Positions 31,669 to 61,759 of a DNA stretch of 64,000 nucleotides are shown here, piece by piece. The stretch spans positions 1-64,000 of the IMG/VR virus record IMGVR_UViG_3300010347_002008. The stretch is one strand, 5' to 3'. The DNA comes from a virus. Taxonomy: Duplodnaviria; Caudoviricetes. The notes under the pieces were generated by a model. That model saw only the letters and a list, made by a program, of their open reading frames with translations, was not told where the DNA came from and made no database searches. Both the position numbers and the translations under genes were made by a program. Position 1 is the stretch's first letter; every line of letters begins with the position of its first letter.

Positions 31669-32584
31669 ATGAAAATTATTTGTCAAATTTGTAATAGAGA
31701 ATTTTCTCGTCTTTCTGATCTTTCTAAACATGTAGGGGTTTTTCATAATTCTCAAAAAGATTATTATGATCTTTACTTAAAATCTCCTGATGAGGGTATA
31801 TGTGCTGAATGTGGAAACCCCACAAAATATTCTAATAAATGGCAACGAGGTTATCTTAAATATTGTTCTCAAGAATGTGAAAACAAAGGATCATTTAAAG
31901 AATTTGAAAAAACTAATTTAATTAAATATGGAGTTAATAATCCAAATAAAATAAAATCTGTTAGAAATAAAATAAAACAAACTAATATTAAAAAATATGG
32001 TAATTCTTGTCCTATGCAAAATGATAAAATTCAAAATGAAATAAGAAATAATAATCTTAAAAATTTAGGGGTTGAATTGCCTTTTCAATCTAAAGAAATT
32101 CAAGAAAAATCTTCCTTAATAAGAGAACAAAAATACGGGGCTAAATATACTTTGCAAAATAGAGAATTGTATAATAAAGTAAAGTCATCTATAAATAAAA
32201 AGTATGGATGTGATTATTTGATGCAAAATACCGTTCTGTTTGAAAAAGCTTTTAAAACTAGAATAAAATTAAAATCTTATAAAAATACTGAATTATTATA
32301 TCAAGGTTCGTATGAATTAGATTTTTTTAGAAAAATATTATGATAAATTTAATATTTAGCGAGGTCCGTCAATAAAATATAAACATAATAAAAAACAAAA
32401 AATTTATCATAGTGATTTTTTAATTCCATCCAAAAATTTGATAGTAGAATGTAAAAACTCTTATTTAGCTAAAAGAGATAAAAATATTTTAATAAAAAAG
32501 AAAAAAGCCTCCTTAAGAGAAGGCTTTAAATGGATTATGATAATCGATAAAAACTATTCAAAATTTGAAAAAATTATTGATTAG
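31669..32584 (+). pseudogene. Degenerate Zn-finger + KYG-repeat + PD-(D/E)xK homing-type endonuclease
   Basis: C2H2 (CQIC...H...H), CAEC...YCSQEC, KYG repeats. An extra T in the T7 run at 32322-32328 shifts the frame; the restored frame has TAG at 32357-32359 then RGPSIKY...YHSDFLIPSKNLIVECKNSY to TAG 32582-32584. Confidence 0.8.
32504..32527 (-). terminator. Probable terminator for the tail operon, embedded in the endonuclease pseudogene
   Basis: AAAGCCT/AGGCTTT hairpin followed by a T tract on the minus strand, about 50 nt after the 32574 stop. Confidence 0.5.
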
Positions 32585-34379
32585 CTTTTAATGCAGCATT
32601 TTCTTCTTGCAAAGATTTTACTTGTGTTTCAAGATCTGCAATTTTTGTATTTAAACTATTTACATCATATATTTCTTGATACTGTAATACAACTTGATCA
32701 TAGTTTCTATAACTGTAGAATAATCCTTCATAGAAAATATATTGTGTACCATCAGAATTTTTAATTATGATTGAATAACCATTATTAGTTTGACTCAATA
32801 ATTTTGCAACTTGATCAGCCATTAATTTAAATTCTAATTGTCCTAATGTGGTATTCATATTTGTTGAATAAGTTGGATTCACTTCTATTTTAGTTTTATC
32901 ATCTAATGTGAATGATAAAGCATAATTATAAACACCAGATAAATCAACATTTTCTCTTTGAATAGGATCTGTGTTTTGATTTAATCTTTCAAATTTAAAC
33001 AAATAGGTTGAATCACCATCCTTAAGGAATAATGGTCCCGTCCCTTGGGGGAGGACTTCGTTATTCATGTTTAGCACCACATTAGTTGTGTCATAAAAGA
33101 TCTTTACATACTTAGTTTTTTGTGGTCCTGCACCTGAAACAATGTTTGCAACTTCACCAGGAATCTTGTTAAATACTTTATAAGGAATATAATTGTCAAT
33201 GTTTATTCTTGTAAATGTTCTTCCATACTTTTTAGGATCTGTAGATGAAAAAGAAGCTTTGCGAATGATTTGTGAACCATCCATTCTGTTCATTAATCTA
33301 CAAATGTATTCAATATTATATGAAGAAGCAATATCAGAGTTGATAATAATTGGTCTAAACTTATTAGGTGTCATAAAGTTACTCTCTTGAGTAAACTGAA
33401 ATCTTTGTGTCATCAAGGTTGTTCCAGGAGGAATCAATTCATAAACTTGTATTTCATGAATTAACACCCATTTAGCAGCCTCTGTTCCATACTCTTCTGT
33501 AAATTCTTGATAATTGTCATTTGGGTTATTTGAAGTGAATAAAGGAATTCTGCCACTTTCAATATCGCCCATGTATTCACCAATTATAGTATCTTTCCAT
33601 GTAGCATAATATTCAATGTAATCTCCGGCTGTAGATTCCGCAATAAAACAATTGAAATTATCTGCATTAGAAGTAACCGGCAATTGTAATTGAACTTTTT
33701 CTGAAATAACATATTGATAGTTATCAATCTCAGGAATTGTACTATATTGAATATAAACATCTGACAACTCTTGTATTTCTAATGAATCTTCAATTGGAAT
33801 TCCTGTAGGATATGATGAAACTTGATGTCCCAAATGTTGTATAGAAGGAACTTTAAATTCTACATATTTGTCATAAAATCTGTTTCCTAAGTATAAAGGT
33901 TCAACAGCAAATTTAACTACATAATTTCCTCTAACTTGTTTTATCCAAGTAAAGTTCGATAAATCAACTAAATAACCTGATACATCTTCTGCACGAATTT
34001 GTAAAAGAAAACCTGCTATATCATCAAAATTATATCCAGAAACAATATGAACTTTTATAGTATCGTGAGCATAAGGAAGAATTTGTCCAATATTTACTGA
34101 TGAATCAAAATACGAATAATAAAGTGATGGATCAAAAGGATCATCATTATTAATGTACCAAGTTGATCTACTTGAATTAGTAGGAACAGACTGCGTGGAA
34201 AGCATATTGTTTGTATTTCCAGGAGCCTCGTTTGTATAATATTGTTTTACACCCCAAACTGTTTCAGCTAAAAAAGGATTACCACAATTTATTGCAACAT
34301 CATCACGATTGAATTCATACTCTAAAAGTAAGAAATCATTGAGCTGTACATATTTGGAAATATTTGTAGCCATAATCAA
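32574..34379 (-). CDS. Putative virion structural (baseplate/tail) protein with C-terminal coiled coil
   Basis: 601 aa, beta-rich, in the tail module. Confidence 0.55.
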   Translation of the reverse strand: MIMATNISKYVQLNDFLLLEYEFNRDDVAINCGNPFLAETVWGVKQYYTNEAPGNTNNMLSTQSVPTNSSRSTWYINNDDPFDPSLYYSYFDSSVNIGQILPYAHDTIKVHIVSGYNFDDIAGFLLQIRAEDVSGYLVDLSNFTWIKQVRGNYVVKFAVEPLYLGNRFYDKYVEFKVPSIQHLGHQVSSYPTGIPIEDSLEIQELSDVYIQYSTIPEIDNYQYVISEKVQLQLPVTSNADNFNCFIAESTAGDYIEYYATWKDTIIGEYMGDIESGRIPLFTSNNPNDNYQEFTEEYGTEAAKWVLIHEIQVYELIPPGTTLMTQRFQFTQESNFMTPNKFRPIIINSDIASSYNIEYICRLMNRMDGSQIIRKASFSSTDPKKYGRTFTRINIDNYIPYKVFNKIPGEVANIVSGAGPQKTKYVKIFYDTTNVVLNMNNEVLPQGTGPLFLKDGDSTYLFKFERLNQNTDPIQRENVDLSGVYNYALSFTLDDKTKIEVNPTYSTNMNTTLGQLEFKLMADQVAKLLSQTNNGYSIIIKNSDGTQYIFYEGLFYSYRNYDQVVLQYQEIYDVNSLNTKIADLETQVKSLQEENAALKANQ

Positions 34380-35039
34380 TTAATTTTTTAATTTAAATGA
34401 AAGTTCAAATTCTTCGAAAATTTGACCCTCATCATATTCATCAAATGAAATAAAACTCTCGTTAGCTTTATCTTTTTTATTTTTAACTTTATCTTTAGAA
34501 TCCTTCCATAATCCTGTAAGATCATTTAAAAAAATCCCGCCTTTTGATAATATTTTATGTATAACTCTTAAAACAAAAAGTATAATAGCGATTTTTAAGA
34601 ATAACATACCTCCCCAGTGCCATTCATTTTCGGCTCCTCTAAGAACTTTATCCATAAAATCCGCCTTTACAACATATGTATTCTGTATAAATCCCCAAAC
34701 TCCAGCAACAAGAGAGGCAATAGTTCCAACATTTAATATTTGCTGCATTCTCTTTGCTTTTTTTCTACTAACTAAAGATGTTCCGGCAGTTTTAAGCACA
34801 TCGTTGGCTGTATCAAGAACTTTTCCAGCAATTTCCTTTCTTTTTTGTTTTCCCTTATCAGTGCCCCATTCCTCTTCAGAAACTCCAAGTTCTTGCTGAA
34901 CTTTTCTTAATAAATCTTTTAATTCTTTTTCATGTTGACGAAGTTGTTCTTGTCTTTCTGGATCAAGATCATCATCACCTCTTAATGATGTTTGTTTTTC
35001 TTCTTTTTCGTCTTCAATATCTAATAAATCTCCTGCCAT
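34380..35039 (-). CDS. Protein with two hydrophobic segments between charged termini
   Basis: IASLVAGVWGFI and WGGMLFLKIAIILFVLRVI; C-terminal NE|SFISFDEY motif. Confidence 0.65.
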   Translation of the reverse strand: MAGDLLDIEDEKEEKQTSLRGDDDLDPERQEQLRQHEKELKDLLRKVQQELGVSEEEWGTDKGKQKRKEIAGKVLDTANDVLKTAGTSLVSRKKAKRMQQILNVGTIASLVAGVWGFIQNTYVVKADFMDKVLRGAENEWHWGGMLFLKIAIILFVLRVIHKILSKGGIFLNDLTGLWKDSKDKVKNKKDKANESFISFDEYDEGQIFEEFELSFKLKN

Positions 35040-35053
35040 TACATTTAATTATT

Positions 35054-35917
35054 TTACCATTGATAAATTGTATAGCCAAATGAAGGACCAACAACAATTG
35101 TAGGTTTCTTCTGAATAAAATCGTATGTTGGCATAATACCCAAATTAACACTAAACCCAGTAAACCAGTGTGAACGTTTTGGAACATCTAATAAAACCCC
35201 TTGCATATTTGTTACACTAAATCCAGGATATTTACTATTTGCAAAAACTCTTAATCTTCCATTTTCCCATTTCTGACCCCATACTAACTCTATCTGTGTT
35301 GCTCTGGAAGTCATTTCGGTTCCTAGATGTTTAACTTCTACATCTCCTAATTCAAAATTAGATCTTGCAAAAATAGCTGGTTCATTATCAGGAGTTAATA
35401 AATATCTATCCTTAGCCCATACTAATCTAACCTTTGTTTGTCCTTTAAATAAATCATAATTTGTTGTATCTTTGTCATAAATATAATGAAGAGTCCATGG
35501 AACTAAATATGTGGAGTCGTTTAATTTTATAGGTTCTTCTAATAAATCTTTAAGATGTGCAATATACTTTCTAAGATCAGTCGTATCCTGTTGTAATAGA
35601 ATAACAATTTTGTTTAATGATATAACCTTTCCTTTTTGTTTTTGTAACTCATCATACAAATCCTTATTAAGTTTTTTCAATTCCTTTTCAGAAGCTATGA
35701 AACCGTCAATTGTAAATTGAAGTTCCCCTGTTTTAAGTCTTTCTTTCTTAAGAGTATCTGTCAAAGCAGAATTATTTTGTTCAGTTCTCTCTAAATCTTC
35801 TCTTAATTCTCTATTTCGCTGACACATAGTAGCCAAGAATATAACTAAAACAATAGCTACAACATATCCAAAAAATTTTGAATTAATAAAGTTCCAAATT
35901 GCTTTTAAAAATTTCAT
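35054..35917 (-). CDS. N-terminal TM + coiled coil + C-terminal amphipathic beta-strands (envelope-spanning, spanin-like candidate)
   Basis: FFGYVVAIVLVIFLATMC anchor; heptads; ends TGFSVNLGIMPTY...TIVVGPSFGYTIYQW. Confidence 0.55.
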   Translation of the reverse strand: MKFLKAIWNFINSKFFGYVVAIVLVIFLATMCQRNRELREDLERTEQNNSALTDTLKKERLKTGELQFTIDGFIASEKELKKLNKDLYDELQKQKGKVISLNKIVILLQQDTTDLRKYIAHLKDLLEEPIKLNDSTYLVPWTLHYIYDKDTTNYDLFKGQTKVRLVWAKDRYLLTPDNEPAIFARSNFELGDVEVKHLGTEMTSRATQIELVWGQKWENGRLRVFANSKYPGFSVTNMQGVLLDVPKRSHWFTGFSVNLGIMPTYDFIQKKPTIVVGPSFGYTIYQW

Positions 35918-35927
35918 ATATAATTTT

Positions 35928-38003
35928 TTAATTTGCTTGAATTATTATCAACATAGGATAACCATCTACACCACCAGCACTACAATCCATTTGTCCATAT
36001 CCAGATGCTGGGTATGACCCAACAAATGTTGGTCCCCACCCCTCTCCGGATCCAGTTAGATCGTATATTGTTACTCCGCTAATAGAAGGAGTAGGAAGAG
36101 ACCACTGCCAATCAATTGGAGCACTATCTGTAAATCTCATCGATGTATATAAAGTATCACCATAATAAATAGTTCCATAATCAACTTGCCAATATCCAGA
36201 TCCACCATATGATGATTGATAATTAAGATTTATAGGAAGACTATACTCTGTTCCTCCAATTTCTATCCAGACCTCAACACCCCTTTGATATATTGTTAAA
36301 GAACCTACAGGGGTTGTGCCACTAACAAATTCAATAGTACCATATCTCTGATATTCAATGTCATTGTCTTCATCCAATGTTATTGTAATAGGAGTTAAAG
36401 TTCCAGCAGGACCTGACATCGGAGAAATTGAAACCCATGGAGGATATGAATCTATAGACCATGGACATGCAGCATTTGCTGAAACATCAACAGTCCAAGG
36501 ATTGGAACCTCCAACATTTCCATTTCTAGAAGCATCAATGTAATAATATGGCCATGAATATGAATAAAGTTTTGAATTTCCAGTTAACCATAATTCAGGA
36601 CCTATAGCTCCTCTTGGTTGGTAAATTGAAACATCTTTATAAATTGTATTTCCTGGTAATAGATGAACTCTAATTTTTCCAACACGTGAATTTATAGATT
36701 CATTAGCTATTACGTCAACTAAAATTGATCCATCTAATCCTCCAATACTTGTGCATCTAATATTATACATAAAATCAGATGGATTAGATAAAATAGAGGC
36801 ATTCCAAGTAAAGTTTGCGTCAACATCAAATCCTAAATCAAACGCAGCATCCGATGCACTTAATACATAACTACTTGGATTAACATAAATGGCGCCTTTA
36901 AATAAATTCTGCACTTCAGAATTTCTTGTCCATCCAGTATCTGTATATAATTTCATGTAATATGCGTATGTTTTTGCCGGAGATAGTCCTGTTATAGTTA
37001 CATAACTTCCGGGAGTGCTTGAAACATTTGAAAATATTAAAGGTCTTAATGATACATCATTTATGAAACTAAATGTTTTTCCATTATAGGGATAATTATT
37101 TTCATAGAAATATAAATCACCATAAACATTTGTTGCTCCATTTACAAAATCAGATAAATTCCAGTTTATTGAACAATTAGTAGTTCCCATTGTTCCGTAA
37201 AAACTGGTTGGAGACGATTGAAAATTAGGATCAAATATTGAATTGGCTTTTATTTCATAATTTGTTAAAATCGCACCTACACAAGTATCTTGAGTAAAGG
37301 TATTTTTTCCTAATTCTTTCTTTTGACGTAATAATGAAACATCAAAAATTAAGTTAGTATTTCTTAATAAACCAGTATTATCCAAGTTTCCAATATGAAA
37401 AGCTTTTTCTACTTCATTGTAAACTATAGCTAATGCTTTATGATTATCTTGAGGAGCATTTTCCCCAGATGTATATACTGTAAATGCATTATATTTTAAA
37501 GCAGCGTCCGATTTAATATTTGTATATTCAATTCTTGCAAAATTCTTGGGTTGAACATCATAAATATTTTCTGGAACAGCTGTATAATCAATAGCACCTG
37601 AAACAGTATAAACATTATCAATGATAAATTTTGGAGATGAATTACTATTAAAATATCTTTCAAATCCATTACTTGTATCTTTGCCTAGAGGAACAAAAAA
37701 ACCTCCCATATTTAAGCTAGCAAATTTGTATTGATATGTATCAGTTTCGGCATTTATTTCATATGCTAAACCATCACTATCAAAAAACAAATCTCCTGTA
37801 ACATAAACACGCCCATCAGGTAAAGGTTCATCTGCAGGCCAGAGAGTTAAATTGTTTGCTATTTTATTATTAATAATTGTAGTTTGTGTATTTGGATTTA
37901 AGCTTGTAAAATACATAGCAAGGCCTTGGCGACCATCTTCTCCTCGGTCTCCTTTTGTACCATATCCAGGTTTACCTGGTGCGTATTTGAATTTTTCGCT
38001 CAT
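35928..38003 (-). CDS. Tail-associated protein with FN3-like and BACON-like domains
   Basis: Short Gly-x-y stretch; ITGLSPAKTY (FN3-like); PWVSISPMSG...RYGTI and SRVGKI (BACON-like). Paralog of 38048-40024. Confidence 0.65.
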   Translation of the reverse strand: MSEKFKYAPGKPGYGTKGDRGEDGRQGLAMYFTSLNPNTQTTIINNKIANNLTLWPADEPLPDGRVYVTGDLFFDSDGLAYEINAETDTYQYKFASLNMGGFFVPLGKDTSNGFERYFNSNSSPKFIIDNVYTVSGAIDYTAVPENIYDVQPKNFARIEYTNIKSDAALKYNAFTVYTSGENAPQDNHKALAIVYNEVEKAFHIGNLDNTGLLRNTNLIFDVSLLRQKKELGKNTFTQDTCVGAILTNYEIKANSIFDPNFQSSPTSFYGTMGTTNCSINWNLSDFVNGATNVYGDLYFYENNYPYNGKTFSFINDVSLRPLIFSNVSSTPGSYVTITGLSPAKTYAYYMKLYTDTGWTRNSEVQNLFKGAIYVNPSSYVLSASDAAFDLGFDVDANFTWNASILSNPSDFMYNIRCTSIGGLDGSILVDVIANESINSRVGKIRVHLLPGNTIYKDVSIYQPRGAIGPELWLTGNSKLYSYSWPYYYIDASRNGNVGGSNPWTVDVSANAACPWSIDSYPPWVSISPMSGPAGTLTPITITLDEDNDIEYQRYGTIEFVSGTTPVGSLTIYQRGVEVWIEIGGTEYSLPINLNYQSSYGGSGYWQVDYGTIYYGDTLYTSMRFTDSAPIDWQWSLPTPSISGVTIYDLTGSGEGWGPTFVGSYPASGYGQMDCSAGGVDGYPMLIIIQAN

Positions 38004-38047: not shown

Positions 38048-40024
38048 TTATGGAAAATGTGATGGATGTGAAGTATTTGTAGATCCAGCTCCCCTTGTAG
38101 TAGAACAACTGTTATAAGCATTAAGATATTTTTTCCAATAATAATATCTATTTGTTCCTATTTGAACATTTCCAGTTCCTGAAATTTTTGAAATACTCGA
38201 AATATATGCATATCCCATTGACTGTACCCATCGATCACTTTCGTAATCACAAGAAGGTCCTTGTACAATCGGATGATCGTAAGACCCCTCTCTCCAATAA
38301 CTTTTTATATAAACACTTGTGTCAATTGAAGGAGATATAGTAAATGTATTAGTCACTAAATTATATCCAGTTTGATTTGGATCAAAATTTGGATCTCTTC
38401 CACTATTTTGTGAAGAAATATTTGCTTCCGCAACATTTGTTTGCTTCGTCCAAATACCCCCACTTTTTCTCCATGTTTCAACCCATATATGAACTCTACG
38501 ACCAGTAGTTACTCCCCCTGCTGCAGCTCCCCACGCACCCATTTGAATGGTTACAGACGCAGATACATCAATAGTAGCCGATGGGGAACTTGTAAATACT
38601 AATTTTCCGTATGAATCAAATGCTACATAAACTTCTAATGGTGTCTGATTAACCGTTATTATTTGAGGAGAAGCTTCTGAATAAACATTAATATAACCTG
38701 TTCTGGATGTAGTGCCAGTAAGTTTAACTAAACTCACATCAAATGTAAATTCTCCAGGTCCAGCGCCTGAACCTCCTGACACATCAATCCACGTATAACT
38801 TCCTCGGTTGGCATTCCATCCTGTAAATGAATCTGTTGAAATATCAACACCATAAACATAAGTTCCTTTGTATGATTCGTATGGTGTAAATTCTCCTAAA
38901 TAATTAGCATTTAATATTTTAGATGCCGGATCTAAAATTGTCATAGTTGCAGGAGATCCAGTTTCTATAGTTTCTATTTTTAGAGATTGTCTTTCCCACC
39001 CGTCCTTTTTAAGTATCATATAATATTCATAAGTTGTTCCGATACTTAAATCATTTATGATTACATAACCGGAAGGATCAACATCATGAATAATTAAAGG
39101 CTTAAATATAGAAGCATTAATGGCCCAAGTTCCACTTGCTGCTTGTTTTTTATTAAAAACAATGGTACCTTTAATAGATGGATCATAATATCCTGGAGTA
39201 AAATCTTCAAGATTCCAGACTAAACGAGCATATTCACCAAGAGGCTGAAGAATAAATGAAGCTGGTTGCTCCTCAAATATTGGATCAAATAAAATATTTG
39301 TAGCCTTTTCTGCATTTGATATTACAGTTCCACTTGGAGTATTTGTTTTAAATCTATTTGAATCTTGACGGTTTACTAATAATAATGAAACATCCAATGT
39401 TAAATTAGTGTCTCTAAGATTTCCACTTTCTAAATTTCCAATTCTAAAACCATCATTATCTTTAAAAATAGCTAACGCTTTATGCTCATCAATATCTGCT
39501 TGTTCAGCGCATGAATATAATGTAAAAGCTGATACATCTGTAAATTCAATACGAGTGAAGTCTTGCAAATTAATTCCATAAATATTTCCCAGAACTAAAT
39601 AACTAGATTTTGTCGAAAAATTATTATCTATCAAATAATTAGTTGAGGCACTATGAATATTTGAATATCTTTCAAATCCTGTGATAGTATCATATATAGG
39701 GGGAACGTGAGATTCAAAAAATTCTGACTTTGATAACGCTGCTCCTGTATTTGTAAATTCATCCTCTGAAGCATCAATTTGATAAATATAACCTCTTGAA
39801 CTTACAAATAAATCACCAGATTGATAAACTCTTCCTCCAGGAAGCTTTACTCCGGGGGTTGATGACCACATAACATAATCATTACGTATGCAATCTTCAA
39901 TGCGTAATAAATCAAATACAGGATCAAAGTCTGTGAAATACAATGCAAGACCTTGAAGGCCTGCAGATCCATCTCCTCCTTTAGCTCCGTATCCTAATAA
40001 TCCTGGTGAATATTGAAATTTCAT
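38048..40024 (-). CDS. Tail-associated protein with BACON-like domain, paralog of 35928-38003
   Basis: Shared N-terminus (KF.Y.PG..GYG.KG..G..G.QGLA.YFT); TWIDVSGGSG...SRTGYI...ITVNQ. Confidence 0.65.
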   Translation of the reverse strand: MKFQYSPGLLGYGAKGGDGSAGLQGLALYFTDFDPVFDLLRIEDCIRNDYVMWSSTPGVKLPGGRVYQSGDLFVSSRGYIYQIDASEDEFTNTGAALSKSEFFESHVPPIYDTITGFERYSNIHSASTNYLIDNNFSTKSSYLVLGNIYGINLQDFTRIEFTDVSAFTLYSCAEQADIDEHKALAIFKDNDGFRIGNLESGNLRDTNLTLDVSLLLVNRQDSNRFKTNTPSGTVISNAEKATNILFDPIFEEQPASFILQPLGEYARLVWNLEDFTPGYYDPSIKGTIVFNKKQAASGTWAINASIFKPLIIHDVDPSGYVIINDLSIGTTYEYYMILKKDGWERQSLKIETIETGSPATMTILDPASKILNANYLGEFTPYESYKGTYVYGVDISTDSFTGWNANRGSYTWIDVSGGSGAGPGEFTFDVSLVKLTGTTSRTGYINVYSEASPQIITVNQTPLEVYVAFDSYGKLVFTSSPSATIDVSASVTIQMGAWGAAAGGVTTGRRVHIWVETWRKSGGIWTKQTNVAEANISSQNSGRDPNFDPNQTGYNLVTNTFTISPSIDTSVYIKSYWREGSYDHPIVQGPSCDYESDRWVQSMGYAYISSISKISGTGNVQIGTNRYYYWKKYLNAYNSCSTTRGAGSTNTSHPSHFP

Positions 40025-47541: not shown

Positions 47542-47577
47542 AGTTTTAATTTTATATTTATAAGGCTAAAGCCATTT

Positions 47578-49038: not shown

Positions 49039-49048
49039 TAGTTATTAT

Positions 49049-49270: not shown

Positions 49271-49284
49271 TGAATATTAATATT

Positions 49285-50094: not shown

Positions 50095-50104
50095 TTTCTA
50101 ATAA

Positions 50105-53100: not shown

Positions 53101-54067
53101 CGAGATTTATACAATCAACTTTAGACCTTTTAAAATCTATAGTGTTAGGTCCCGTATATCTTAATACAGTATTATAAACCCCTGAATTTATATAATTTGA
53201 AGAGTCTGTTAGATACGCATTTTTTGCAGAAATAGGATCCTTTCCTTCTGCAGAATACCACCATCCTGGGTATGTTCCTGTTGAGTCATCATATTCCATA
53301 TAATATGGTTCAGGACCAACTTGAGTTGATGAATCAACAAAATCATAATAAGCTAAATAACTTAAACCGTCTGGGTGGGGTCTTGTATATGATTCTCGTC
53401 CTAATATATTTTCTCCTAGATCTCCTATTTCCATTCCATGACGATAATTATCATCTTCTACTTGTTTAAAGTATGCTCTCGTCTGTCCATGAGAAGTAGG
53501 AACTAAAACATAAGTTTCATTATAAGTTCCAAATGTATCAACTCTAACATTTCCTGCTGATACTGGTCCAATATATTGTACAACACGGCTATAATCACTT
53601 GAATCTACTTCTTCCGTCCAATAACGTACACCATTTCCAGCAATTGACGGATCTGCCCATCTTATAGCCCCGGTTTCTTTTAACCATTTCCAAAATACAC
53701 GTTCTGAAACTGTATTACTTAATTCAGGATTGTAAGTTTCTTGATTTAATAAATTTGCTTCTAAATTTAAAGCATAGTTTTGAAAAGACTCAGCAATAAG
53801 AACACGACCATCTTTTATAGAAGTTGTTCCTTGCTCATATTCCCAACAACCTACAATATTTCTGATATTAAAAGTATTGAAAATAGTTCCTGTACTTGCC
53901 TCAGCAATGTTTGGTATATTTAAAAGTGCAAAGTGAGAGATCTTAACGACGTTGTTTCGCTCATTAATATTTAGGCCAATGTCCTCAACAGCAGAACTGA
54001 ATGTGTAAATAGTTCCGCCTGTAGCTCTCATTCTCTTCACAAAAGGTGTAACTCGATTATTAGCCAT
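50105..54067 (-). CDS. Tail fibre/baseplate-attached fibre with coiled-coil repeats and collagen-like segment
   Basis: 1320 aa; 26-aa repeats (YLYDYTLDLSTRIDEIGPSGQDASIP); about 38 Gly-x-y triplets near the C-terminus. Confidence 0.75.
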   Translation of the reverse strand: MANNRVTPFVKRMRATGGTIYTFSSAVEDIGLNINERNNVVKISHFALLNIPNIAEASTGTIFNTFNIRNIVGCWEYEQGTTSIKDGRVLIAESFQNYALNLEANLLNQETYNPELSNTVSERVFWKWLKETGAIRWADPSIAGNGVRYWTEEVDSSDYSRVVQYIGPVSAGNVRVDTFGTYNETYVLVPTSHGQTRAYFKQVEDDNYRHGMEIGDLGENILGRESYTRPHPDGLSYLAYYDFVDSSTQVGPEPYYMEYDDSTGTYPGWWYSAEGKDPISAKNAYLTDSSNYINSGVYNTVLRYTGPNTIDFKRSKVDCINLEFGIDNLRTIFGDSTLTFDTLATTHAVNDRFNFNAVLIYYSIYNSTRDAILATNLLGVMFLDAPSGNSSQIVEGYEGILLPSLEKIQSGPTGFGTSYSLRLNIKTDNMIDDTGAIVVDAATSDQIMADQWQAAFQNLSSAVSILTQQNSTLNYISGQYVLLQGQQTQLMNDVTALKYQVNDIARDITGTAALGPGFVWDASGYLDVSVTSMDYNYIDGSLLARDASIDDILERYSEIDSSIENLYDYTLDLSTRIDEIGPSGQDASIPYLYDYTLDLSTRIDNFSPDQDASIPYLYDYTLDLSTRIDEIGPSGQDASIPYLYDYTLDLSTRIDEIGPSGQDPSIQDLYDTALFGVGNGSGDVGLLYLDVVDNKATAVAKGLIAGDGITFDDSEYSVTINAVRDASIDDLYSNKVDVYKWNNGETHVTQIVNDGDTISMYGYDAETYFVNGIEISNDLNRVKIYNDEDASNGPWFILNNERIEANAAIHYEGVDENTTDTSALISKGYAKNTFVKETSLGTDFYWDEGSLDVSTQDISTLLLDAEDYFYTKDEIDASFYTKEQIDASFAHIGQDPSIVDLYSTKLDAEIPSTVYDPSYLNKYNVVTDDANNFIVANKIFNEDEPDLNYINESKTIYNQAPDYIKRPTYLLDAKGGVDGDNCGVGSLYLQGSDQQSGEQASISLTATQYSSGTPSVNTVNVTPGATYIDKKLEYTVAAPDDLAELSLIHKGYVDASLANKLNVGEAVTSVYNEVGDAQIFNATTAPILYARSINASTGIIVSQTANEIFIASSVEGIQGTQGEVGAQGTQGEAGAQGLAGIQGAEGAQGTAGTEGAQGTQGEVGAQGTAGTEGAQGTAGTEGAQGIQGASGVQGAIGSQGAVGSQGSVGAQGTIGAQGTIGSQGAVGSNTGFVYKTSAYTVEASCNGFIIEASGTFTLTYPNSLATGFQSTIVNIGGGNITLNASTLLTTDSSVVLRDRYASASVVHKGSGVFYGWGNLK
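50385..50725 (-). repeat. Collagen-like (GAQGTx)n coding repeat
   Basis: Continuous Gly-x-y with 9/18/27-nt periodicity. Confidence 0.9.
52080..52385 (-). repeat. About four 75-78 bp coding tandem repeats
   Basis: Unit ...cctatttcatcaattcttgtgcttaggtctaaagtataatcatataaataaggtattgaagcatcttgac...; differences mostly synonymous; one unit one codon shorter. Confidence 0.9.
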
Positions 54068-54116
54068 ATTATTATATTAGTTTTTTTATATATTCAATAG
54101 TATCAAAAAGTCACAT

Positions 54117-55436
54117 TTATCCAGCTAATCCAACTTGGCCGACAACAGCATATCTTTTTGACGGAGGTTTACCGTCTGGATATATCAAACTTAAATCAAT
54201 TGTGCCAATAGTATCTTTCCAAGCCGTCTCGATATTTCCCGAAGGATCTCCTTTATAAAAATGTTCCCCATTTAAATCTAAGTTCCACAAAGTGAAATTT
54301 TTAATATTTGTCCAACTAACTGAATCCCATCCTCCAATCCAAGTAGATCCTCTTGAAGATCCCGTTCCTGCATTAACTTTGCTCTGAATAGCTCCATTAA
54401 TATAAAGACTAACATCACCAGCTGCAGATGCTCCGTTATAATAAAAATCTATATGATTTTTTTGATTTGGAAGAAAAATAGGACATTGTTTAACTGTCGA
54501 GCCATAATAATATTGTATAGAGGTGTCAGAAATAAATCTTACTCCCATATTATTAGTTCCTCCTAATACTATCATAACAGAGGTGCCAGTTCCGATGTTT
54601 GTAGAGGTGTCCATATAACAATCAAAGGAAATTCTATAATCTGAAGCAGAAGGAGGTGCTAAGCTAGTATTCGATTTCAAAAATACACTTCCATCAAATT
54701 TTAATAATTGTGTTGGTCCATAATTAATTAAAACAGAAACATCATACGCTGTTGACGAACTAAAAATATTTAATATCTTTGCTATATTGGCATTGGAAGA
54801 ACCGTCTGTGGGTGGAGAGTTTCGATATTTATCGAGCCATATTGCAGTTGTATAATTAGGCAAAACTTGATTCCATCTAGTTGCTAATTTATCAAGTATG
54901 TTATCTACAGTTGTTGTATCTAATGAACAACTTACACAATTAATTTGGAAAAAATGTCGGTTTAATGTTGTTGGGAATATAATAGTCTGCAAATTTTTAT
55001 TTCCATATATTTGTGATGAAATAGGGTTTTTTATCTGCATAAGATCGGGGTTAGTATTAGCATCAAATACTCCACCTAAATTACTTAATGTTGATAGATC
55101 TAATACACCAACTATTTTATCATTATCTATTCCGATTTCTAAAATTCCGACACTTCCAGTTGTAGATCCTTGATAAACTTTTACAGTTTTATTTCCGCTC
55201 AATGAATAAACATGAGTAAATTTATTGGAATTCAATATTGATCCATCACCCAAATCCCACCATAACGTTCCAGATGATGTAGCAACTGAAGGATCAAACG
55301 AAGACCCACCAACATCGTTAGTCACAAATTGCAAAAGCAGAGGACCATAGTCAATAGGAGGAGTATAGTCCAAACAAATTGGAATTTTTCCAATTGATAA
55401 CGGAATTCCCCCTATATGTAATATTGTTTTACTCAT
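54117..55436 (-). CDS. PKD-like + short LRR + LamG-like tail-associated protein
   Basis: WDLGDGS...THVY; LDLSTLSNL; TVDNILDKL; VSLYING...TWIGG...LWNLDLNG. Confidence 0.6.
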   Translation of the reverse strand: MSKTILHIGGIPLSIGKIPICLDYTPPIDYGPLLLQFVTNDVGGSSFDPSVATSSGTLWWDLGDGSILNSNKFTHVYSLSGNKTVKVYQGSTTGSVGILEIGIDNDKIVGVLDLSTLSNLGGVFDANTNPDLMQIKNPISSQIYGNKNLQTIIFPTTLNRHFFQINCVSCSLDTTTVDNILDKLATRWNQVLPNYTTAIWLDKYRNSPPTDGSSNANIAKILNIFSSSTAYDVSVLINYGPTQLLKFDGSVFLKSNTSLAPPSASDYRISFDCYMDTSTNIGTGTSVMIVLGGTNNMGVRFISDTSIQYYYGSTVKQCPIFLPNQKNHIDFYYNGASAAGDVSLYINGAIQSKVNAGTGSSRGSTWIGGWDSVSWTNIKNFTLWNLDLNGEHFYKGDPSGNIETAWKDTIGTIDLSLIYPDGKPPSKRYAVVGQVGLAG

Positions 55437-55453
55437 ATTTTAATCTTCATTTT

Positions 55454-56713
55454 CTAAAAATTAATAAATATTCCTGCTGCGGTACTTCCATCAAAATAAT
55501 GAGTCCAAGAGTTCATATAATCATCACTACGATAAACACCGCCGCCATGAGAAGCAGAAGAATCTGTAACGAAAACATATTTTCCTGACTTAGACATGGC
55601 AACATCATAATATATTGAAGCGGGTAATTCAGTTATTCGACTCCATGTTGCCCCATAATTAATAGATTTATAACAATATCCGACTACATAACCTCCTCCA
55701 CTGCTGCCTCCTCCACCATAAGCAATCATATATTTACCATCAGCCGACATAGCACATCCTCCCCAAAATTGACTATAACCCACATCTTTTAATGTCCATG
55801 TGCTTCCATAATTAGTAGAAAGATTCAAATATGGTTGAGGGGCATTTGATCTATCTGATGAGGGTATTAAAATATATTTACCATCATAAGAAATAGCACC
55901 TACAGCTGGCATTCTTTGAGACACTGTTGTTGAGTTCCATGTTGTCCAATCTGTACTAACATAAACAACTGCATTTCCGCTAGAATGATATTGTTCCCAA
56001 ACTACTATTCGACTTCCATCTCCGGAAACAACCGCACCTCCCATTGGAGATCCTGAAGGAATTTGTGTAAAATTATTCCATGTTATCCCATAATCACTAG
56101 AATATTTAGTCTGCATTATTCCTGTTTCAGACCCTGTACCACCAATGATCATATTTTTTCCTGATTTATCAACATATCCGGCTGTATAACGCATAGATGC
56201 TCCTGATAAATTAACAGAGACATCTTGACCAAAATTTCTTGAAGTAATTACTGTTCCATCTATATAATAAGTACAAGAAGAAGCCATTAAATATTTTCCG
56301 TCTTGAGATCCCCACATAAAAGAGCCGGGGCTTGTTGATCCGGGTGTAAATGGAAGCGAAACATCTCTAGTCCAAGTATTTCCACTATCCTCAGATAATG
56401 CAAGATACACTGTTCCTCTAATGGTTCCGGAATCGTTATATATAGATGCGTTTGTTACAGCATAGAAAATATTGTTTGTAGAAATATTTAAATTATAAGC
56501 GGTAATGGTAGGAAATGTCGCGGGTAACTCAGTATAAGTAATTCCTAAATCTTCTGATTCATATGTTTTTCCCGCAACAGAAACAATAATTTTTTGATTA
56601 GAACCGATCATTAATTTTAATCTTCTGGCATTTTGATTATTACCAGAATCATTCATAATCTTCATTCTATTACTTCCTTTAATACCACCATCCTGTATAA
56701 TTATTCTACTCAT
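55454..56713 (-). CDS. Asp-box (BNR) beta-propeller protein, probable receptor- or glycan-binding
   Basis: Repeated S-x-D/N-x-G-x-T-W (SEDLGITY, SEDSGNTW, SSDYGITW, STNYGSTW, SINYGATW, SDDYMNSW) and A-x-S-x-D-G-K-Y blades. Confidence 0.8.
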   Translation of the reverse strand: MSRIIIQDGGIKGSNRMKIMNDSGNNQNARRLKLMIGSNQKIIVSVAGKTYESEDLGITYTELPATFPTITAYNLNISTNNIFYAVTNASIYNDSGTIRGTVYLALSEDSGNTWTRDVSLPFTPGSTSPGSFMWGSQDGKYLMASSCTYYIDGTVITSRNFGQDVSVNLSGASMRYTAGYVDKSGKNMIIGGTGSETGIMQTKYSSDYGITWNNFTQIPSGSPMGGAVVSGDGSRIVVWEQYHSSGNAVVYVSTDWTTWNSTTVSQRMPAVGAISYDGKYILIPSSDRSNAPQPYLNLSTNYGSTWTLKDVGYSQFWGGCAMSADGKYMIAYGGGGSSGGGYVVGYCYKSINYGATWSRITELPASIYYDVAMSKSGKYVFVTDSSASHGGGVYRSDDYMNSWTHYFDGSTAAGIFINF

Positions 56714-56716
56714 AAA

Positions 56717-58354
56717 TTATTCAAATTTTCCAGATTCAATCCATTTACCACCACTATCTCTTTTTTCAAAAATTAATTTTCCATTTGAGGCATCATCAGC
56801 AATATATAATCGCCAACATCTATTTGTAGCAGGGGCTGATGCAGGATCTCCTATATAGAAATAATTCATAACAGCAATACCCTGAGATCCGTCTAGGGCT
56901 CCTGATCCATTAGCAACGCCGTAAACTTTTAATTGGGTATTTCCATCCAAATTAAATTTATAACCCTGCTCGGTATTACCAGCCGATGCAGTAATATTTT
57001 TTTCAATAAGAGTAGCCACTCCAGCATCTGCTTCTAACTCAATATAATCATAAAATAATACATTTGAGCAAGGATCATCAACTGTAATTTCATTATTAGA
57101 TTCTCTCCATATTCTAGGAACAAATTCCAATCCTGTACATGCATCATTAGCCGCAACTAATTTGCCTGCTTGATACGAACTTGGAGTATCATAAAGTCCA
57201 AGGAATGTTGAAGCATTATTAACAATTGTTCTTAATGTTGTGATAGAAGAATCTTGTGCAGAATTCCATGTATATAGATAATTAAGAGATGCATCTGGAG
57301 CATTACCATATGTTAATTTTTTAGAGGTGGTATCATAATAAACTGTATAGTTTGTTTTAGTATTATCCATTCCTGAAATGAATAGATCGCTAGAAATACT
57401 TACATCTCCTATAACTGTTAATCTTGCTGCTGGATCATGATCCGGAGCGCTTGTATCTCCTAGTACAATATTACCATTGCTTGCACAGTATATAACATAT
57501 TTAGTTCCACCCGCCCTATTATAAAGCATGAAATCGTTTCTTCCATCATTTGTATCATCGGTAACCCAAATCCATGACCAATCCGGGTTGTGTCGACTAG
57601 CAAATTTTAATGATGTGGTTGTTGCTCCAGTTGGGTTTTCATTATAAAGTTGCCATGATTGTTCTCCTGTGCCACTTACTTTAAATACCGGGTTAACTCC
57701 CCCAGGCCCATATACATGAAGATAAGAAGAAGGGTTTGCAGTTCCAATACCTAAATTAAGTCCAGTAAAATATAAACTAGATTCGGCTACAATTGATCCA
57801 TCTCCTGCAGCAGTTAATATTTGATTATTAGATCCAACTACACCATTAAACCATCCAACAGTTCCGCCACCCCCACCGCCTTGAACACTTGGTTCTAAAT
57901 AACCTCCATTCCATTTAAAATAAACATCATTAAAACTGACTTCAGGAATAAAAATATCAGCAACACTTAAAGGTTTAACAGCATGCCATTTACTTGCGTC
58001 GTTAGCAGATGGGTCATATACTAATATATAGCCAGAAGAAATATCAGCACTAATTGAGACATCCAACAAAGCCGAAAGATAAGATGCCCCTCCAACTGAA
58101 AAAACTTCCCATGATGGATCTCCTGTTGCATTATATTGATATATTTGTCGTTGTCCTCCTGCTTCTGCAGAATTAAGAACACAAACTAACATACCATTTT
58201 CTAATCTAGCGGTATAAATCGAGTTTCTAGATACATCAGTTTGTACAGTTTGATAACCTCCTCTCAATTCATTTGCAAACGCAGATGGAAAAGTATCTGT
58301 ATCGGCCCAAGGTCGTATTGCTGCAACAACTAATGTTCCTTGATTGTTTGCCAT
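56717..58354 (-). CDS. Tail fibre-like protein
   Basis: N-terminal ~75 aa shared with 58379-59878; GIGTANPSSYLHV and NGNIVLG...ARLTVIG trimeric fibre-type repeats. Confidence 0.7.
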   Translation of the reverse strand: MANNQGTLVVAAIRPWADTDTFPSAFANELRGGYQTVQTDVSRNSIYTARLENGMLVCVLNSAEAGGQRQIYQYNATGDPSWEVFSVGGASYLSALLDVSISADISSGYILVYDPSANDASKWHAVKPLSVADIFIPEVSFNDVYFKWNGGYLEPSVQGGGGGGTVGWFNGVVGSNNQILTAAGDGSIVAESSLYFTGLNLGIGTANPSSYLHVYGPGGVNPVFKVSGTGEQSWQLYNENPTGATTTSLKFASRHNPDWSWIWVTDDTNDGRNDFMLYNRAGGTKYVIYCASNGNIVLGDTSAPDHDPAARLTVIGDVSISSDLFISGMDNTKTNYTVYYDTTSKKLTYGNAPDASLNYLYTWNSAQDSSITTLRTIVNNASTFLGLYDTPSSYQAGKLVAANDACTGLEFVPRIWRESNNEITVDDPCSNVLFYDYIELEADAGVATLIEKNITASAGNTEQGYKFNLDGNTQLKVYGVANGSGALDGSQGIAVMNYFYIGDPASAPATNRCWRLYIADDASNGKLIFEKRDSGGKWIESGKFE

Positions 58355-58378
58355 ATTAAATAGTTTTTATTTTATTCA

Positions 58379-59878
58379 TTAAGTAACTACAACTGTTATA
58401 TTGGATCCAGACTGTGTGTTAAGGCTTCTATAGGTATAAAAGTTTTCTGTATATGGAACTGCAGTTAAGTTTGTGACTAATAAGGATGATTCTAAGAATG
58501 TCGTAGCAAATCCACCAACAGTAAAGGCCGTTGCTTGTCCAAATCTTGTAGGATAACAATACCAGATATATTCTCCCCCACCATTTGCTATTGTAAATGT
58601 TCTTCCTCTCGCAGTTGCTAAAGCACTTGTATCAAGACCAGTAACATCAGATGATTCACCAAATGAAGTTTGTGGATCTGTGCCCCAATAAGCCTTATTT
58701 TGACCAGTAATAGTATTTGTGGCGCTTGCGCTTCCTGCAACTCTTAAATAATCTAATGATGAAGAAGGAACGCCTTTATTATTATAATAAGTACCTGTTC
58801 CTGCGCCCCAGCTTGCATTTACCGTCCATGTATTTGTTCCAAGAGCAATTGAAACGTCTGTAGGATTATGAGTTTGTGTATTTGATGTAGCCGTATAAAC
58901 ACCATCAACAGTATTTCCAGGAATTCTAAATACAAATTGCAAAGCTGCTCCTGTTAAGCTTCCATCAGTTGTTCCATCACCATTCGTTATTCTACCTGAG
59001 TTATATGTAGCAGTTAATGTTGGACCATATAATGTACCAACTTCTAAGGTTCCACTTATACCACTTAATCCTAAACTGTTTAAAAGTCCTACAGTTGCAT
59101 CTACAGTTGGGAACAATAAATCAGTCCAAATTTCATCATATGTTTTACCCCTTAAACCACCAGCTGACGTATCCTTTGGTATACCTCCTACAGCCACAGG
59201 CATTATAATATTATCAGCTACTGTTGGAGTATATCTTGATGTATCGGTTGTTGATACAAAAATACTTACATCAATTTTACCATCTACCCAATATAAACCA
59301 TATCCAATTGATGATGATTTTACAAATTGATCAAGTCCATAAACAGATCCCAAACTAACTTCAAGAGATCCATTATTCCAAACAAAATCATCACTTAATG
59401 AAGCATTTGGAATAAAAGCTGCTCTAATATATGCTAAAGATGAATCTTGAACAACTTGCCATGCTGATAAATTTCCTAAAGATGTATCAAGTCCTTGATT
59501 CCATACAGTTAAATTTCCTAATGAAGTTTCATGGTTTGAAACCCACGAATTTAAACTACTGATAGAACTATCTCTAAGTTGTAATGATCCATCAACATAA
59601 GCTAATGTTACTCCTCCGGGATTAAATAGCTCCCAAGTTGTTCCATTCAATTGATACATAGTTCTTGCACCTCCATTTGAAGCAGAACTAAGAACATATA
59701 CTAACATACCATCTTCTTTTCTATCAGAATATGTAGTTAGCAATAAGTTTCTTGAAGTGTCATTGGCAACGATATGTAAACCTCCTCGAATTTCATTCGC
59801 AAATGCAGAGGCAAATACGTCGGTATCAGCCCAAGGGCGAATCGCTGCTATAACTAATGTTCCTGAATTATTTGCCAT
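58379..59878 (-). CDS. Tail fibre-like protein sharing domains with both neighbours
   Basis: N-terminus like 56717-58354; short coiled coil; C-terminal VGGIP...GKT...LLFPTV to QSG.NI domain like 59903-61759. Confidence 0.7.
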   Translation of the reverse strand: MANNSGTLVIAAIRPWADTDVFASAFANEIRGGLHIVANDTSRNLLLTTYSDRKEDGMLVYVLSSASNGGARTMYQLNGTTWELFNPGGVTLAYVDGSLQLRDSSISSLNSWVSNHETSLGNLTVWNQGLDTSLGNLSAWQVVQDSSLAYIRAAFIPNASLSDDFVWNNGSLEVSLGSVYGLDQFVKSSSIGYGLYWVDGKIDVSIFVSTTDTSRYTPTVADNIIMPVAVGGIPKDTSAGGLRGKTYDEIWTDLLFPTVDATVGLLNSLGLSGISGTLEVGTLYGPTLTATYNSGRITNGDGTTDGSLTGAALQFVFRIPGNTVDGVYTATSNTQTHNPTDVSIALGTNTWTVNASWGAGTGTYYNNKGVPSSSLDYLRVAGSASATNTITGQNKAYWGTDPQTSFGESSDVTGLDTSALATARGRTFTIANGGGEYIWYCYPTRFGQATAFTVGGFATTFLESSLLVTNLTAVPYTENFYTYRSLNTQSGSNITVVVT

Positions 59879-59902
59879 TTTATATTTTTTATTATTTTAT
59901 TT

Positions 59903-61759
59903 TTAAGTTATTACAATTGAAATATTAGTTCCACTTTGAAGCCCATCTGTTCTCCATACGTTGTAATTTTCTGTATGACCATAACTATTGGTTACAGAAA
60001 CAGGACCAATATTATGAATACCAGTAAATGTTAAACCACCAACTGTAAATACTGGAGTTCCTGGAATTGATGATGGATAACAATAATAAATGTATTCAGC
60101 TGTAGGTGAAACATAGAATAATGTTTTTGTGTAAGTATTTGAGAATTCACTACTGTCTAATGTAATAATTTCATTGCTTGTTAATGAAGAGTTTGAACTA
60201 ACACCCCAATATCTCTTATTTCTACTTGTAATAGCTCCTGAAACTTGAGATATTGTTGCTGCCACTCTTTGTGCATCTAAGTTAGTTCCAACATTTCCTT
60301 TATTATCATAATAAGTTCCTGTTCCAATAGCATGACTAACGTCAACTGACCAAGTATATGTTGCCCCGACATTTCCAATTAAAATAGGAGTTGTAAATAC
60401 ATGTGTTGATGAGTTTAAAGTCCAACTACCTTCTGCTTCAATTGTTCCACCAGGAAGCTTAAATGTATAATAGTAAGCGTCACCAGTTAAATTAGGTCCT
60501 GGGGTTCCATTACCATTCTGTATTGCTCCAGGATTAAATGCAGCAACAAGTGTTGGTGTGTATGACGAGCTAGGCTCAGCATATGCGCTTAGTAATCCAG
60601 AATACGAAAGACTCTTAGGAGTAGAAACCGAAGCATAAACAGTTGGGAATAATAAATCCATAAATATTTGTTCTATAGTTTTTCCTCTTAGATCTCCAAC
60701 TGTGGTACCAGCAGGGATTCCTCCAACCGTATATGGCATTGATAATGAATCAGGAGCTGTAGGATCAAAAATTGCTGGTCCTACTTCTTGACCATTTAAT
60801 ATAATTGATCCATCAACATAAATATTTCCTGTTGTAGAAATATCTTGGGTAATTAATAATCCTTCGATCCATGCGTTTGGACCGTAAATGCAAACATCTC
60901 TAACTGCTAAAGGATCATTTATTTGTAATGGAGACCCATATCCTATAAGAATATTATCAGATGAATCCCTTAAGGCATTGTTAATTTGAATATCTCTTGC
61001 AATTAATTCATCACCATCCATATAAAGTGACGAATCCCTTACTGTTGTAGTAGCAGTAAATCTTGGAATATGATTAATAGTTCCTGGACCTACAATTCCG
61101 GTTCCACCCCCACCTCCGCCAGTTCCACTAGCTTCAACACTGTATTTATATTGAGTCCATGTTGTACCCCATGATGGATCGTATGCAATAGCAATAAATT
61201 CTTCATAAGCCGCTCCTGCCCCGCTTGCGTCGACAATATAACTTATATTGTTGCATGGATCCAATAAAACTTCAAGTTGATTAATCCCAATTAAAGATGA
61301 ATCAAAATAAATTCCTACAACTTGTGAAAGATTATCATTTGCTAAGAAAATTGGATTTGCGTTTGAAACCTTATAATATGGTTTCATTACGTCTATGACT
61401 TTATATCCTGCTGGTTCATAAGGAAATTTCCATGATGATGTATCAATTCCATATGTACAAGGATCTCTACCAACGGTCACGGGATCCACATACATTCTAT
61501 AGAAATTGTAATCAGCAGTGGTATTATTATCGTATAAATTAGTGAATTGTCTCTTTACAATTAAATTATCTACGACTGCAGTAACAAATTCTCCCCTTGT
61601 GCCTTTTATTCTACCAGTTGTCTCTAATGGAACAGTTAGAATCCCTAAACTACCATCAAAAAATACATCAATATATCTCTCAAATGATAAGAAGTTTGTG
61701 TTTAAAATCTTAGGAAGTTGAGGTACTGGTGTATGCAGATTTAATTGGGTCCAAATCAT
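59903..61759 (-). CDS. Tail fibre-like protein
   Basis: C-terminal ~280 aa paralogous to 58379-59878; GTINHIPRFTATTTVRDSS fibre-type segment. Confidence 0.7.
   Translation of the reverse strand: MIWTQLNLHTPVPQLPKILNTNFLSFERYIDVFFDGSLGILTVPLETTGRIKGTRGEFVTAVVDNLIVKRQFTNLYDNNTTADYNFYRMYVDPVTVGRDPCTYGIDTSSWKFPYEPAGYKVIDVMKPYYKVSNANPIFLANDNLSQVVGIYFDSSLIGINQLEVLLDPCNNISYIVDASGAGAAYEEFIAIAYDPSWGTTWTQYKYSVEASGTGGGGGGTGIVGPGTINHIPRFTATTTVRDSSLYMDGDELIARDIQINNALRDSSDNILIGYGSPLQINDPLAVRDVCIYGPNAWIEGLLITQDISTTGNIYVDGSIILNGQEVGPAIFDPTAPDSLSMPYTVGGIPAGTTVGDLRGKTIEQIFMDLLFPTVYASVSTPKSLSYSGLLSAYAEPSSSYTPTLVAAFNPGAIQNGNGTPGPNLTGDAYYYTFKLPGGTIEAEGSWTLNSSTHVFTTPILIGNVGATYTWSVDVSHAIGTGTYYDNKGNVGTNLDAQRVAATISQVSGAITSRNKRYWGVSSNSSLTSNEIITLDSSEFSNTYTKTLFYVSPTAEYIYYCYPSSIPGTPVFTVGGLTFTGIHNIGPVSVTNSYGHTENYNVWRTDGLQSGTNISIVIT

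Follow-up and report, generated by a model that had tools for sequence, protein, structure and literature searches.

An Asp-x-Ser/Cys tag on the outer tail proteins of Lak-related megaphages is a candidate modification sequon

Why do tail and fibre proteins of unrelated fold, encoded side by side in one phage, repeat the same few residues? The question is raised by a 64,000-nt stretch of viral DNA (hereafter, the window; positions 1 to 64,000 of the IMG/VR record IMGVR_UViG_3300010347_002008, Caudoviricetes). A preliminary description of it had noticed that the proteins of the tail module (32574-61759) are full of Asp followed two residues later by Ser (D-x-S) or Cys (D-x-C), and had proposed a virion modification sequon. 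Here we report that Lak-related Bacteroidota megaphages carry D-[V/A/P/S/G/T/C]-[S/C]-[I/L/T/V/A] as a selected tag throughout their outer tail, on baseplate and fibre proteins alike. In our best reading, to which we give slightly less than an even chance, the tag is a modification sequon, most plausibly for glycosylation of Ser or Cys by the clade's own enzymes. Literature searches returned no published description of a D-x-S/C tag.

Open reading frames (ORFs) were called on the whole contig that holds the window (G000; 79,876 bp, about 20% of the phage genome by the CheckV estimate), and Ser at position +2 from Asp was counted in each protein against 1000 composition-preserving shuffles. Ten minus-strand ORFs within 38048-61759 exceeded their shuffles (p <= 0.003, ratios 2.3 to 5), and outside 32574-61759 not a single ORF of the contig was significant. 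Pooled over the 17 ORFs of the tail module, D-x-S occurs 154 times versus 55.5 expected (2.8-fold, z = 13.2), by far the strongest signal among residue pairs spaced one to four apart; the remaining 65 ORFs of the contig stand at baseline (50 versus 58.5). The excess seen by eye therefore survives contig-wide shuffling and is confined to the tail module. The by-eye counts themselves were reproduced: 14 D-x-S among 37 Asp, with two D-x-C, at 56717-58354; 11 among 34 Asp, with three D-x-C that take up three of the four Cys, at 59903-61759; and 2 among 25 Asp in the gp32-like control (ORF 16559-17545). The motif had been described as running throughout 32574-61759, which holds for most of the ORFs; those at 34380-35039, 35054-35917 and 47578-49038 are not enriched, and the one at 32574-34379 is only weakly so.

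It is very improbable that this excess is an artefact of composition, repeats or DNA-level bias. Part of the count of the 1320-aa fibre does stem from its 26-aa tandem repeat, which is real and carries, as had been noticed, the motif in its units (two D-x-S in each); the repeat supplies about six redundant counts, and without them about 148 versus 55 remain, which rules out a repeat artefact. The Ser codons of the motif (TCA, AGT and TCT) are mixed and match general usage, so selection acts at the protein level with no DNA-level signal, and an explanation by codon bias can be discarded. The shuffles preserve composition, the excess is spread over 12 ORFs, and a parallel excess appears in non-homologous genes of relatives.

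The enrichment is narrowly defined. In the tail module, D-x-T (57 versus 54), N-x-S (66 versus 63) and Ser directly after Asp (D-S, 52 versus 55.6) are not enriched, and E-x-S and S-x-D match expectation. A clade pool of 95 tail-module proteins (66 thousand amino acids) from the window and its relatives, which includes orthologues so that its counts are not fully independent, contains 1046 D-x-S versus 405 expected (2.6-fold, z = 32), with ratios of 0.9 for N-x-S, 1.0 for E-x-S, 1.03 for D-x-T, 0.72 for D-x-D and 0.74 for D-x-N. Enrichment is confined to Asp as the first residue and to Ser or Cys as the third; Thr, Asn and Glu are not accepted. This does not fit general turn propensities, and the ratios for N-x-S, D-x-T, D-x-D and D-x-N lack the exchange of Asn for Asp at i, and of Ser, Thr, Asp and Asn for one another at i+2, that marks a generic Asx-turn or ST-turn.

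The flanks are constrained as well. In the clade pool the middle residue is small (Val 3.4-fold, Cys 3.0-fold, Ala 2.9-fold and Pro 2.2-fold, followed by Ser and Gly), with Asn, Phe, Leu and Arg depleted, and position +3 favours Ile (2.2-fold), Leu (1.7-fold) and Thr (1.6-fold), being aliphatic at 57% of sites versus 36% in the background. Hydrophobic residues at -1, +1, +3 and +5 alternate with polar ones at 0, +2 and +4. Position -2 favours Tyr, Thr and His and position +4 favours Tyr and Asn, both facing the same way as the Asp and Ser. The four-residue motif D-[VAPSGTC]-S-[ILTVA] occurs 79 times versus 8.1 expected in the tail ORFs of the window (about tenfold) and 6 times versus 5.6 elsewhere on the contig; with the Cys acceptor included, the full motif is D-[VAPSGTC]-[S/C]-[ILTVA]. 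D-x-C is weak in the window alone (9 versus 4.1) and significant in the clade pool (53 versus 27.6, from orthologues that are not independent). A small residue at +1 together with an aliphatic one at +3 surrounds 49% of D-x-S and 49% of D-x-C, against 15% in the background and 13-18% for D-x-T, D-x-N, D-x-D and D-x-G. Since D-x-C has the flanks of D-x-S and D-x-T does not, Cys truly substitutes for Ser and Thr does not, and the Ser/Cys exchange suspected from the window is genuine.

Synteny of the tail genes places the phage near the Lak megaphages. Its 762-aa and 1562-aa tail proteins and the N-terminal part of its 1320-aa fibre have syntenic orthologues in Prevotella Lak megaphages; other huge phages, as well as Flavobacteriia jumbo phages, have more distant ones. 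Its relatives in IMG/VR include G002, a 405-kb genome with terminal repeats, and G001, a 260-kb contig whose 762-aa and 1562-aa proteins are 99.8-99.9% identical to those of the window. The phage of the window is an uncultured Lak-related megaphage with a genome of about 400 kb; no capsid, terminase or portal gene was recognised on its 79,876-bp contig. In G001, L023:125-1285 encodes a 387-aa protein with FN3 domains and a C-terminal sorting domain of the type IX secretion system (T9SS), apparently a phage protein exported by the host T9SS, and this sorting domain supports a Bacteroidota host. The upstream fibre genes of G001 (L002:1-10000) are rearranged or replaced relative to window positions 47029-61759, with only modules in common, and the first 512 aa of the 1320-aa fibre are 100% identical in G001; the fibre cassettes look as if they had recently recombined.

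Across this clade the excess recurs. Every relative has a 2-5-fold excess in its tail ORFs, also in fibre genes without homology to those of the window (40 versus 8.5 in a 1372-aa protein and 42 versus 9.8 in a 1341-aa protein, for example), and no D-x-S excess in its opposite-strand genes. Within the window, the excess grows toward the distal fibres. In Lak-A2 the four-residue motif reaches 10-15-fold in distal tail ORFs, and the core orthologues are not enriched (D-x-S 5 versus 6.7 in that of the 762-aa protein). Baseline counts are found in the baseplate and long tail fibres of T4, in Flavobacterium phage MaF61 and crAss001, in the huge phages LR756500 and LR756502 and in two jumbo contigs (L030 and L033), which rules out a general property of tail fibres or of Bacteroidota phages. 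Within the clade, the major capsid protein and 292 non-tail proteins serve as further controls and are likewise at baseline (counts below).

Nor do the folds require the motif. A HMMER search with the 545-aa fibre protein retrieved 370 homologues whose D-x-S ratios are bimodal, forming motif-rich and motif-free groups. Domains from motif-rich homologues contain 32 versus 8.9 (N-terminal), 22 versus 7.2 (middle) and 131 versus 44.5 (C-terminal) D-x-S, those from motif-free homologues 4 versus 5.7, 5 versus 8.2 and 11 versus 8.9, and motif-poor homologues have unrelated residues at the aligned motif columns. It is because homologous domains in other lineages lack the motif that it cannot be a demand of the fold. 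Ten orthologues of the 1562-aa protein have 92 distinct motif columns, 52 of them in a single sequence only, and the excess is present in singleton, intermediate and conserved columns alike; in this family, motif Asp and Ser are conserved about as well as other Asp and Ser (0.61 versus 0.62 and 0.60 versus 0.56). Judged from these alignments, selection is for motif density, with turnover of position. The enriched proteins differ in their Pfam domains (BACON, PKD, weak BNR-like, ConA-like and collagen), so their folds are diverse, as the preliminary description had held. Together, these results identify the motif as a protein-level, lineage-wide, tail-specific signal over unrelated folds.

The individual ORFs are listed in Table 1. 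In the 1320-aa fibre, a conserved N-terminal part of 510 aa has homologues in Lak phages, MaF61 and PAU, and a collagen-like Gly-x-y stretch with 9/18/27-nt periodic repeats lies in the C-terminal part (window 50405-50716). A word-indexed search gave no relatives of the 269-aa ConA-like protein. The MaF61 homologue of the 601-aa protein, ORF102, is among the genes annotated there as baseplate genes. The 486-aa Cys-rich protein, the internal negative, may not be a component of the virion surface.

Table 1 ORFs and repeat of the tail module, with D-x-S counts (observed versus expected from shuffles)
Feature	Position in window	Strand	D-x-S	Remarks
618-aa distal tail/fibre protein	59903-61759	-	11 versus 2.9	3 of 4 Cys within D-x-C; N-terminal module common to relatives
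499-aa fibre protein	58379-59878	-	11 versus 3.0	Four-residue motif 9 versus 0.6
545-aa three-module fibre protein	56717-58354	-	14 versus 3.5	Also 2 D-x-C; 370 metagenome homologues; AlphaFold model
419-aa protein	55454-56713	-	7 versus 3.0	Weak BNR-like Pfam matches
439-aa protein	54117-55436	-	11 versus 3.3	PKD-like domains
1320-aa long fibre protein	50105-54067	-	31 versus 9.4	26-aa tandem repeat; collagen-like stretch
78-nt (26-aa) tandem repeat, 3.8 copies	52080-52369	-	Two per unit	Unit LYDYTLDLSTRIDEIGPSGQDASIPY
269-aa ConA-like protein	49285-50094	-	7 versus 1.4	Laminin_G_3
486-aa Cys-rich protein	47578-49038	-	3 versus 2.6	Not enriched, internal negative; 13 Cys; weak LRR-like match
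170-aa protein	47029-47541	-	6 versus 1.5	
762-aa conserved baseplate/tail protein	44729-47017	-	7 versus 3.7	40% identity to Lak orthologue
1562-aa conserved tail protein	40030-44718	-	20 versus 8.7	
658-aa BACON-containing tail protein	38048-40024	-	12 versus 4.3	AlphaFold model
691-aa BACON-containing paralogue	35928-38003	-	8 versus 4.0	
601-aa protein	32574-34379	-	6 versus 2.7	Weak excess; homologue of MaF61 ORF102

A structural role would need nothing attached to these residues. The side chains of Asp and Ser or Cys, both pointing to one side of an extended segment or placed where a strand passes into a turn, would form a small hydrogen-bonded staple or cap that steadies beta-rich fibre domains, as the clade's preferred way to start or end a strand. 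In medium-confidence AlphaFold models of the 658-aa and 545-aa proteins (predicted local distance difference test score about 64), the confident motif sites lie within beta strands or along their edges, where strands start or end, in hairpin turns and, once, at a helix start; the recurrent C-terminal-domain columns NIDGSTV and YVDSSGD look like hairpins, and Pro or Gly adjoins about 36% of motif instances. Many sites thus fall in turns or at caps, where a staple made by hydrogen bonds is plausible. Orthologues exchange the motif Asp for Asn and the Ser for Asp, Asn or Thr, the Ser often being replaced by Asp or Asn, and in the 1562-aa family the columns common to at least five sequences hold 58% of D-x-S versus 47% of D-x-T. 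However, a generic turn or cap should also take Asn in place of the Asp, and Thr, Asp or Asn in place of the Ser, and none of these is enriched; homologous domains of other lineages fold without the motif; and the fibres of T4, crAss001, MaF61 and other huge phages show no excess. Unrelated folds and non-homologous genes, moreover, acquired the motif in parallel within one clade, and its residues are not conserved beyond other Asp and Ser. On this evidence we regard a purely structural idiom as possible yet rather doubtful. Sites in strands, strand edges and turns, with their alternating flanks, fit exposed positions in the models, with which a sequon and a hydrogen-bonded cap would be equally compatible.

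Exposed rows of unmodified Asp and Ser or Cys, often flanked by Tyr or Asn, might instead make weak multivalent contacts to sugars of the host capsule or lipopolysaccharide (LPS) or to bridging cations. The confinement of the excess to the host-touching parts, its rise toward the distal fibres and the enrichment of Tyr, Thr and His at -2 and of Tyr and Asn at +4 on the Asp/Ser face would suit such direct binding. The exclusion of Thr and Asn is hard to explain in this way, and the conserved inner baseplate proteins are enriched too. The D-x-S-x-S pattern of the metal-ion-dependent adhesion site (MIDAS) is not seen, as Ser occupies +4 at 6.2% of sites versus 9.3% in the background, and we know of no sugar- or cation-binding motif of this form. 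We consider direct binding improbable.

For a modification sequon, the known systems provide points of comparison. The host O-glycosylation sequon, the N-glycosylation sequon, MIDAS and the generic Asx-turn are not the class to which the tag belongs, since a defining feature of each was looked for and is absent; the counts for D-S and N-x-S given above bear out the earlier statement that the motif differs both from the host sequon D-(S/T)-hydrophobic and from N-x-S/T. The Bacteroidota O-glycosylation sequon, D-(S/T)-(A/I/L/V/M/T), shares with the phage tag the likely host phylum, an upstream Asp, an aliphatic residue after the acceptor and the scattering of a short sequon over many unrelated proteins. 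Its Asp directly precedes the acceptor, whereas that of the phage tag stands at -2 with an obligatory small spacer, and the host system accepts Thr, whereas the phage tag takes Cys and not Thr. The host-type D[ST][AILVMT] is low in the tail ORFs (22 versus 37.4 in window 35928-61759); this deficit could follow from the preference for small residues after Asp or could reflect avoidance. Bacteroidota O-glycosylation works in the periplasm, and phage tails are assembled in the cytoplasm; by eye, the N-termini of the tail proteins show no obvious signal peptides.

The N-glycosylation sequon of Campylobacter PglB, D/E-x-N-x-S/T, likewise has an acidic residue two positions before the acceptor, and the eukaryotic N-x-S/T/C tolerates Cys for Ser. 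Unlike in these sequons, there is no Asn here, and Pro at x, which is forbidden there, is favoured (2.2-2.8-fold). The enzymes of both sequons are membrane-bound and act outside the cytoplasm with lipid-linked donors. A precedent for dual Ser/Cys specificity is set by the glycocin transferases SunS, ThuS and GccA (GT2), GT-A enzymes of the cytoplasm that put sugars on both Ser and Cys within short peptide motifs; their substrates, however, are small ribosomal peptides and not virion proteins. No orthologue was identified here, and the GT2 genes of the clade are not conserved between G001 and G002.

In mycobacteriophages, glycosyltransferases encoded by the phage O-glycosylate the virion (Freeman et al. 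2023, PMC10527164, cited in PMC12619734); the statement in PMC12619734 puts the glycans at the C-termini of capsid and tail-tube subunits and mentions no dispersed sequon. The two cases are alike in the proposed glycan on the virion surface and in phage transferase genes that adjoin structural genes, here in close relatives and not on the contig of the window. They differ in that here the capsid is not enriched, a four-residue motif is dispersed through tail, baseplate and fibre proteins, and the hosts are Gram-negative.

Which enzymes could act on the tag? The expectation that glycosyltransferases would be found was borne out in the close relatives, which have many. In the window and its 80-kb contig, which makes up about 20% of the genome, no transferase was detected by Pfam and PHROGs scans that covered nearly every ORF of 190 aa or longer. 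In the close relatives G001, G002, L042 and L044, a one-strand sugar island of up to about 28 kb adjoins the capsid gene (at about 276-304 kb in G002, L040:1-13400 and L069; in G001 in L043, 1-18 kb). By Pfam it contains three GT25, one GT2, two GT8-like and one GT47-like gene, a sugar C-methyltransferase, other methyltransferases and a radical SAM/SPASM gene; N-terminal motifs read by eye, with no Pfam basis, suggest a GDP-mannose dehydratase, a DegT-type aminotransferase, epimerases, an S-adenosylmethionine synthetase and a fucosyltransferase. GT1 and Pkinase families are absent from G000, G001 and G002.

The co-occurrence of the motif with transferases in relatives, which had been proposed as a check, holds for one transferase family in the clade and in Lak, and fails for two others. 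The 243-aa GT25 enzyme (Pfam Glyco_transf_25) is 59-100% identical in 32 IMG/VR contigs; among 50,697 GenBank phage records it is full-length only in the Lak phages, in all 15 of them, with partial matches in LR756501/3 and no other match. The GT25 hidden Markov model gave no hit when run on G007, a contig 67% complete, and on five complete genomes of motif-negative phages. Across lineages, the presence of this gene thus suggestively tracks the motif. GT2 was rejected as a tracking enzyme, as it occurs in motif-negative huge phages, is absent from Lak-A2 and is not conserved between G001 and G002; so was the GT47-like enzyme, which is present in G001 and G002, absent from Lak and represented by a distant copy in the motif-negative LR756502. 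The GT25 family (LPS glycosyltransferases; human COLGALT1/2) includes protein-glycosylating enzymes, and the 243-aa protein matches its Pfam model. To our knowledge, the protein-directed members act on hydroxylysine and not on Ser; that the phage enzyme acts on D-x-S we purely infer.

A tag read by an enzyme could also receive something other than a sugar: formylglycine made by a radical SAM/SPASM enzyme, a phosphate, an acyl group or a nucleotide. Anaerobic sulfatase-maturating radical SAM/SPASM enzymes take Ser and Cys and not Thr, which is the equivalence seen here; a radical SAM/SPASM gene stands at the start of the G002 sugar island, and the window's contig holds several nucleotidyltransferase- and ligase-like genes. 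The radical SAM match is weak, however (E about 1e-5, 266 aa), and its neighbours are sugar-modifying genes; in such surroundings these enzymes usually work on sugars. The motif differs from the sulfatase motif C/S-x-P/A-x-R, and no Pkinase domain was found in the three genomes scanned for it. Non-glycan chemistry therefore seems unlikely to us, with only a small chance of being right.

We suggest that a phage-encoded cytoplasmic enzyme would recognise the tag and modify the side chain of its Ser or Cys. The chemistry would most plausibly be O- or S-glycosylation with sugars from the clade's sugar-synthesis island, and the conserved 243-aa GT25-family transferase is the best single candidate for the enzyme. 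We observe the motif and how specific it is, its confinement to the tail, its spread over the clade and its co-occurrence with sugar genes; we infer that the Ser is modified at all, that a glycan is what it bears and which enzyme attaches it. In its fullest form, hundreds of tail, baseplate and fibre serines would bear a phage-made, probably methylated deoxy- or amino-sugar glycan initiated by GT25, through a sequon not described before. We hold this detailed version to be possible, with the chances leaning against it; if true, it would give phages of Gram-negative bacteria their first sequon-directed system for virion glycosylation.

Several observations weigh against glycosylation, besides the replaced Ser residues, the cap positions and the negative transferase scans of the contig mentioned above. 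The motif-positive lineages (this clade, Lak and, weakly, LR756501) are related, so the correlation with GT25 amounts to roughly one evolutionary event, and LR756501 combines a partial GT25 match with a marginal D-x-S excess only. The motif does not follow glycosyltransferases at large: GT2 is present without it in LR756500 and LR756502, and Lak-A2 has it without GT2 or GT47. The sugar islands of huge phages could instead serve modification of the host surface or of DNA. Phage proteins that are not targets show no depletion, with 261 D-x-S versus 268 expected and 29 four-residue motifs versus 23.6 in 292 non-tail proteins of the clade. Finally, the T4-type major capsid protein of G002, though exposed, is not enriched (1 versus 1.2), so the tag does not coat the whole virion. 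Directly beside that capsid gene, L040:13353-13790 encodes a 145-aa collagen-like protein with 2 D-x-S versus 0.2 expected; this protein, perhaps a head fibre or a decoration protein, may likewise bear the tag. No sheath of family PF04984 was detected in the relatives.

Apart from the tail module, two homing-endonuclease-like genes with NUMOD3 were seen, at window positions 6710-7324 and at L001:15617-16339, the second also with a GIY-YIG-like N-terminus.

If the tag is a sequon, huge phages would coat their host-recognition machinery with a glycan of their own making. This would matter for host range, for the evasion of tail-binding factors and of proteases from the host or the environment, and for the annotation of megaphage structural proteins; the large sugar-gene islands that recur in huge phages would also gain a function. 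A short, portable, Ser-specific tag for cytoplasmic glycosylation would also be of biotechnological interest. If its role is purely structural, the tag would still be an unusually clean clade-wide sequence idiom, imposed in parallel on unrelated folds.

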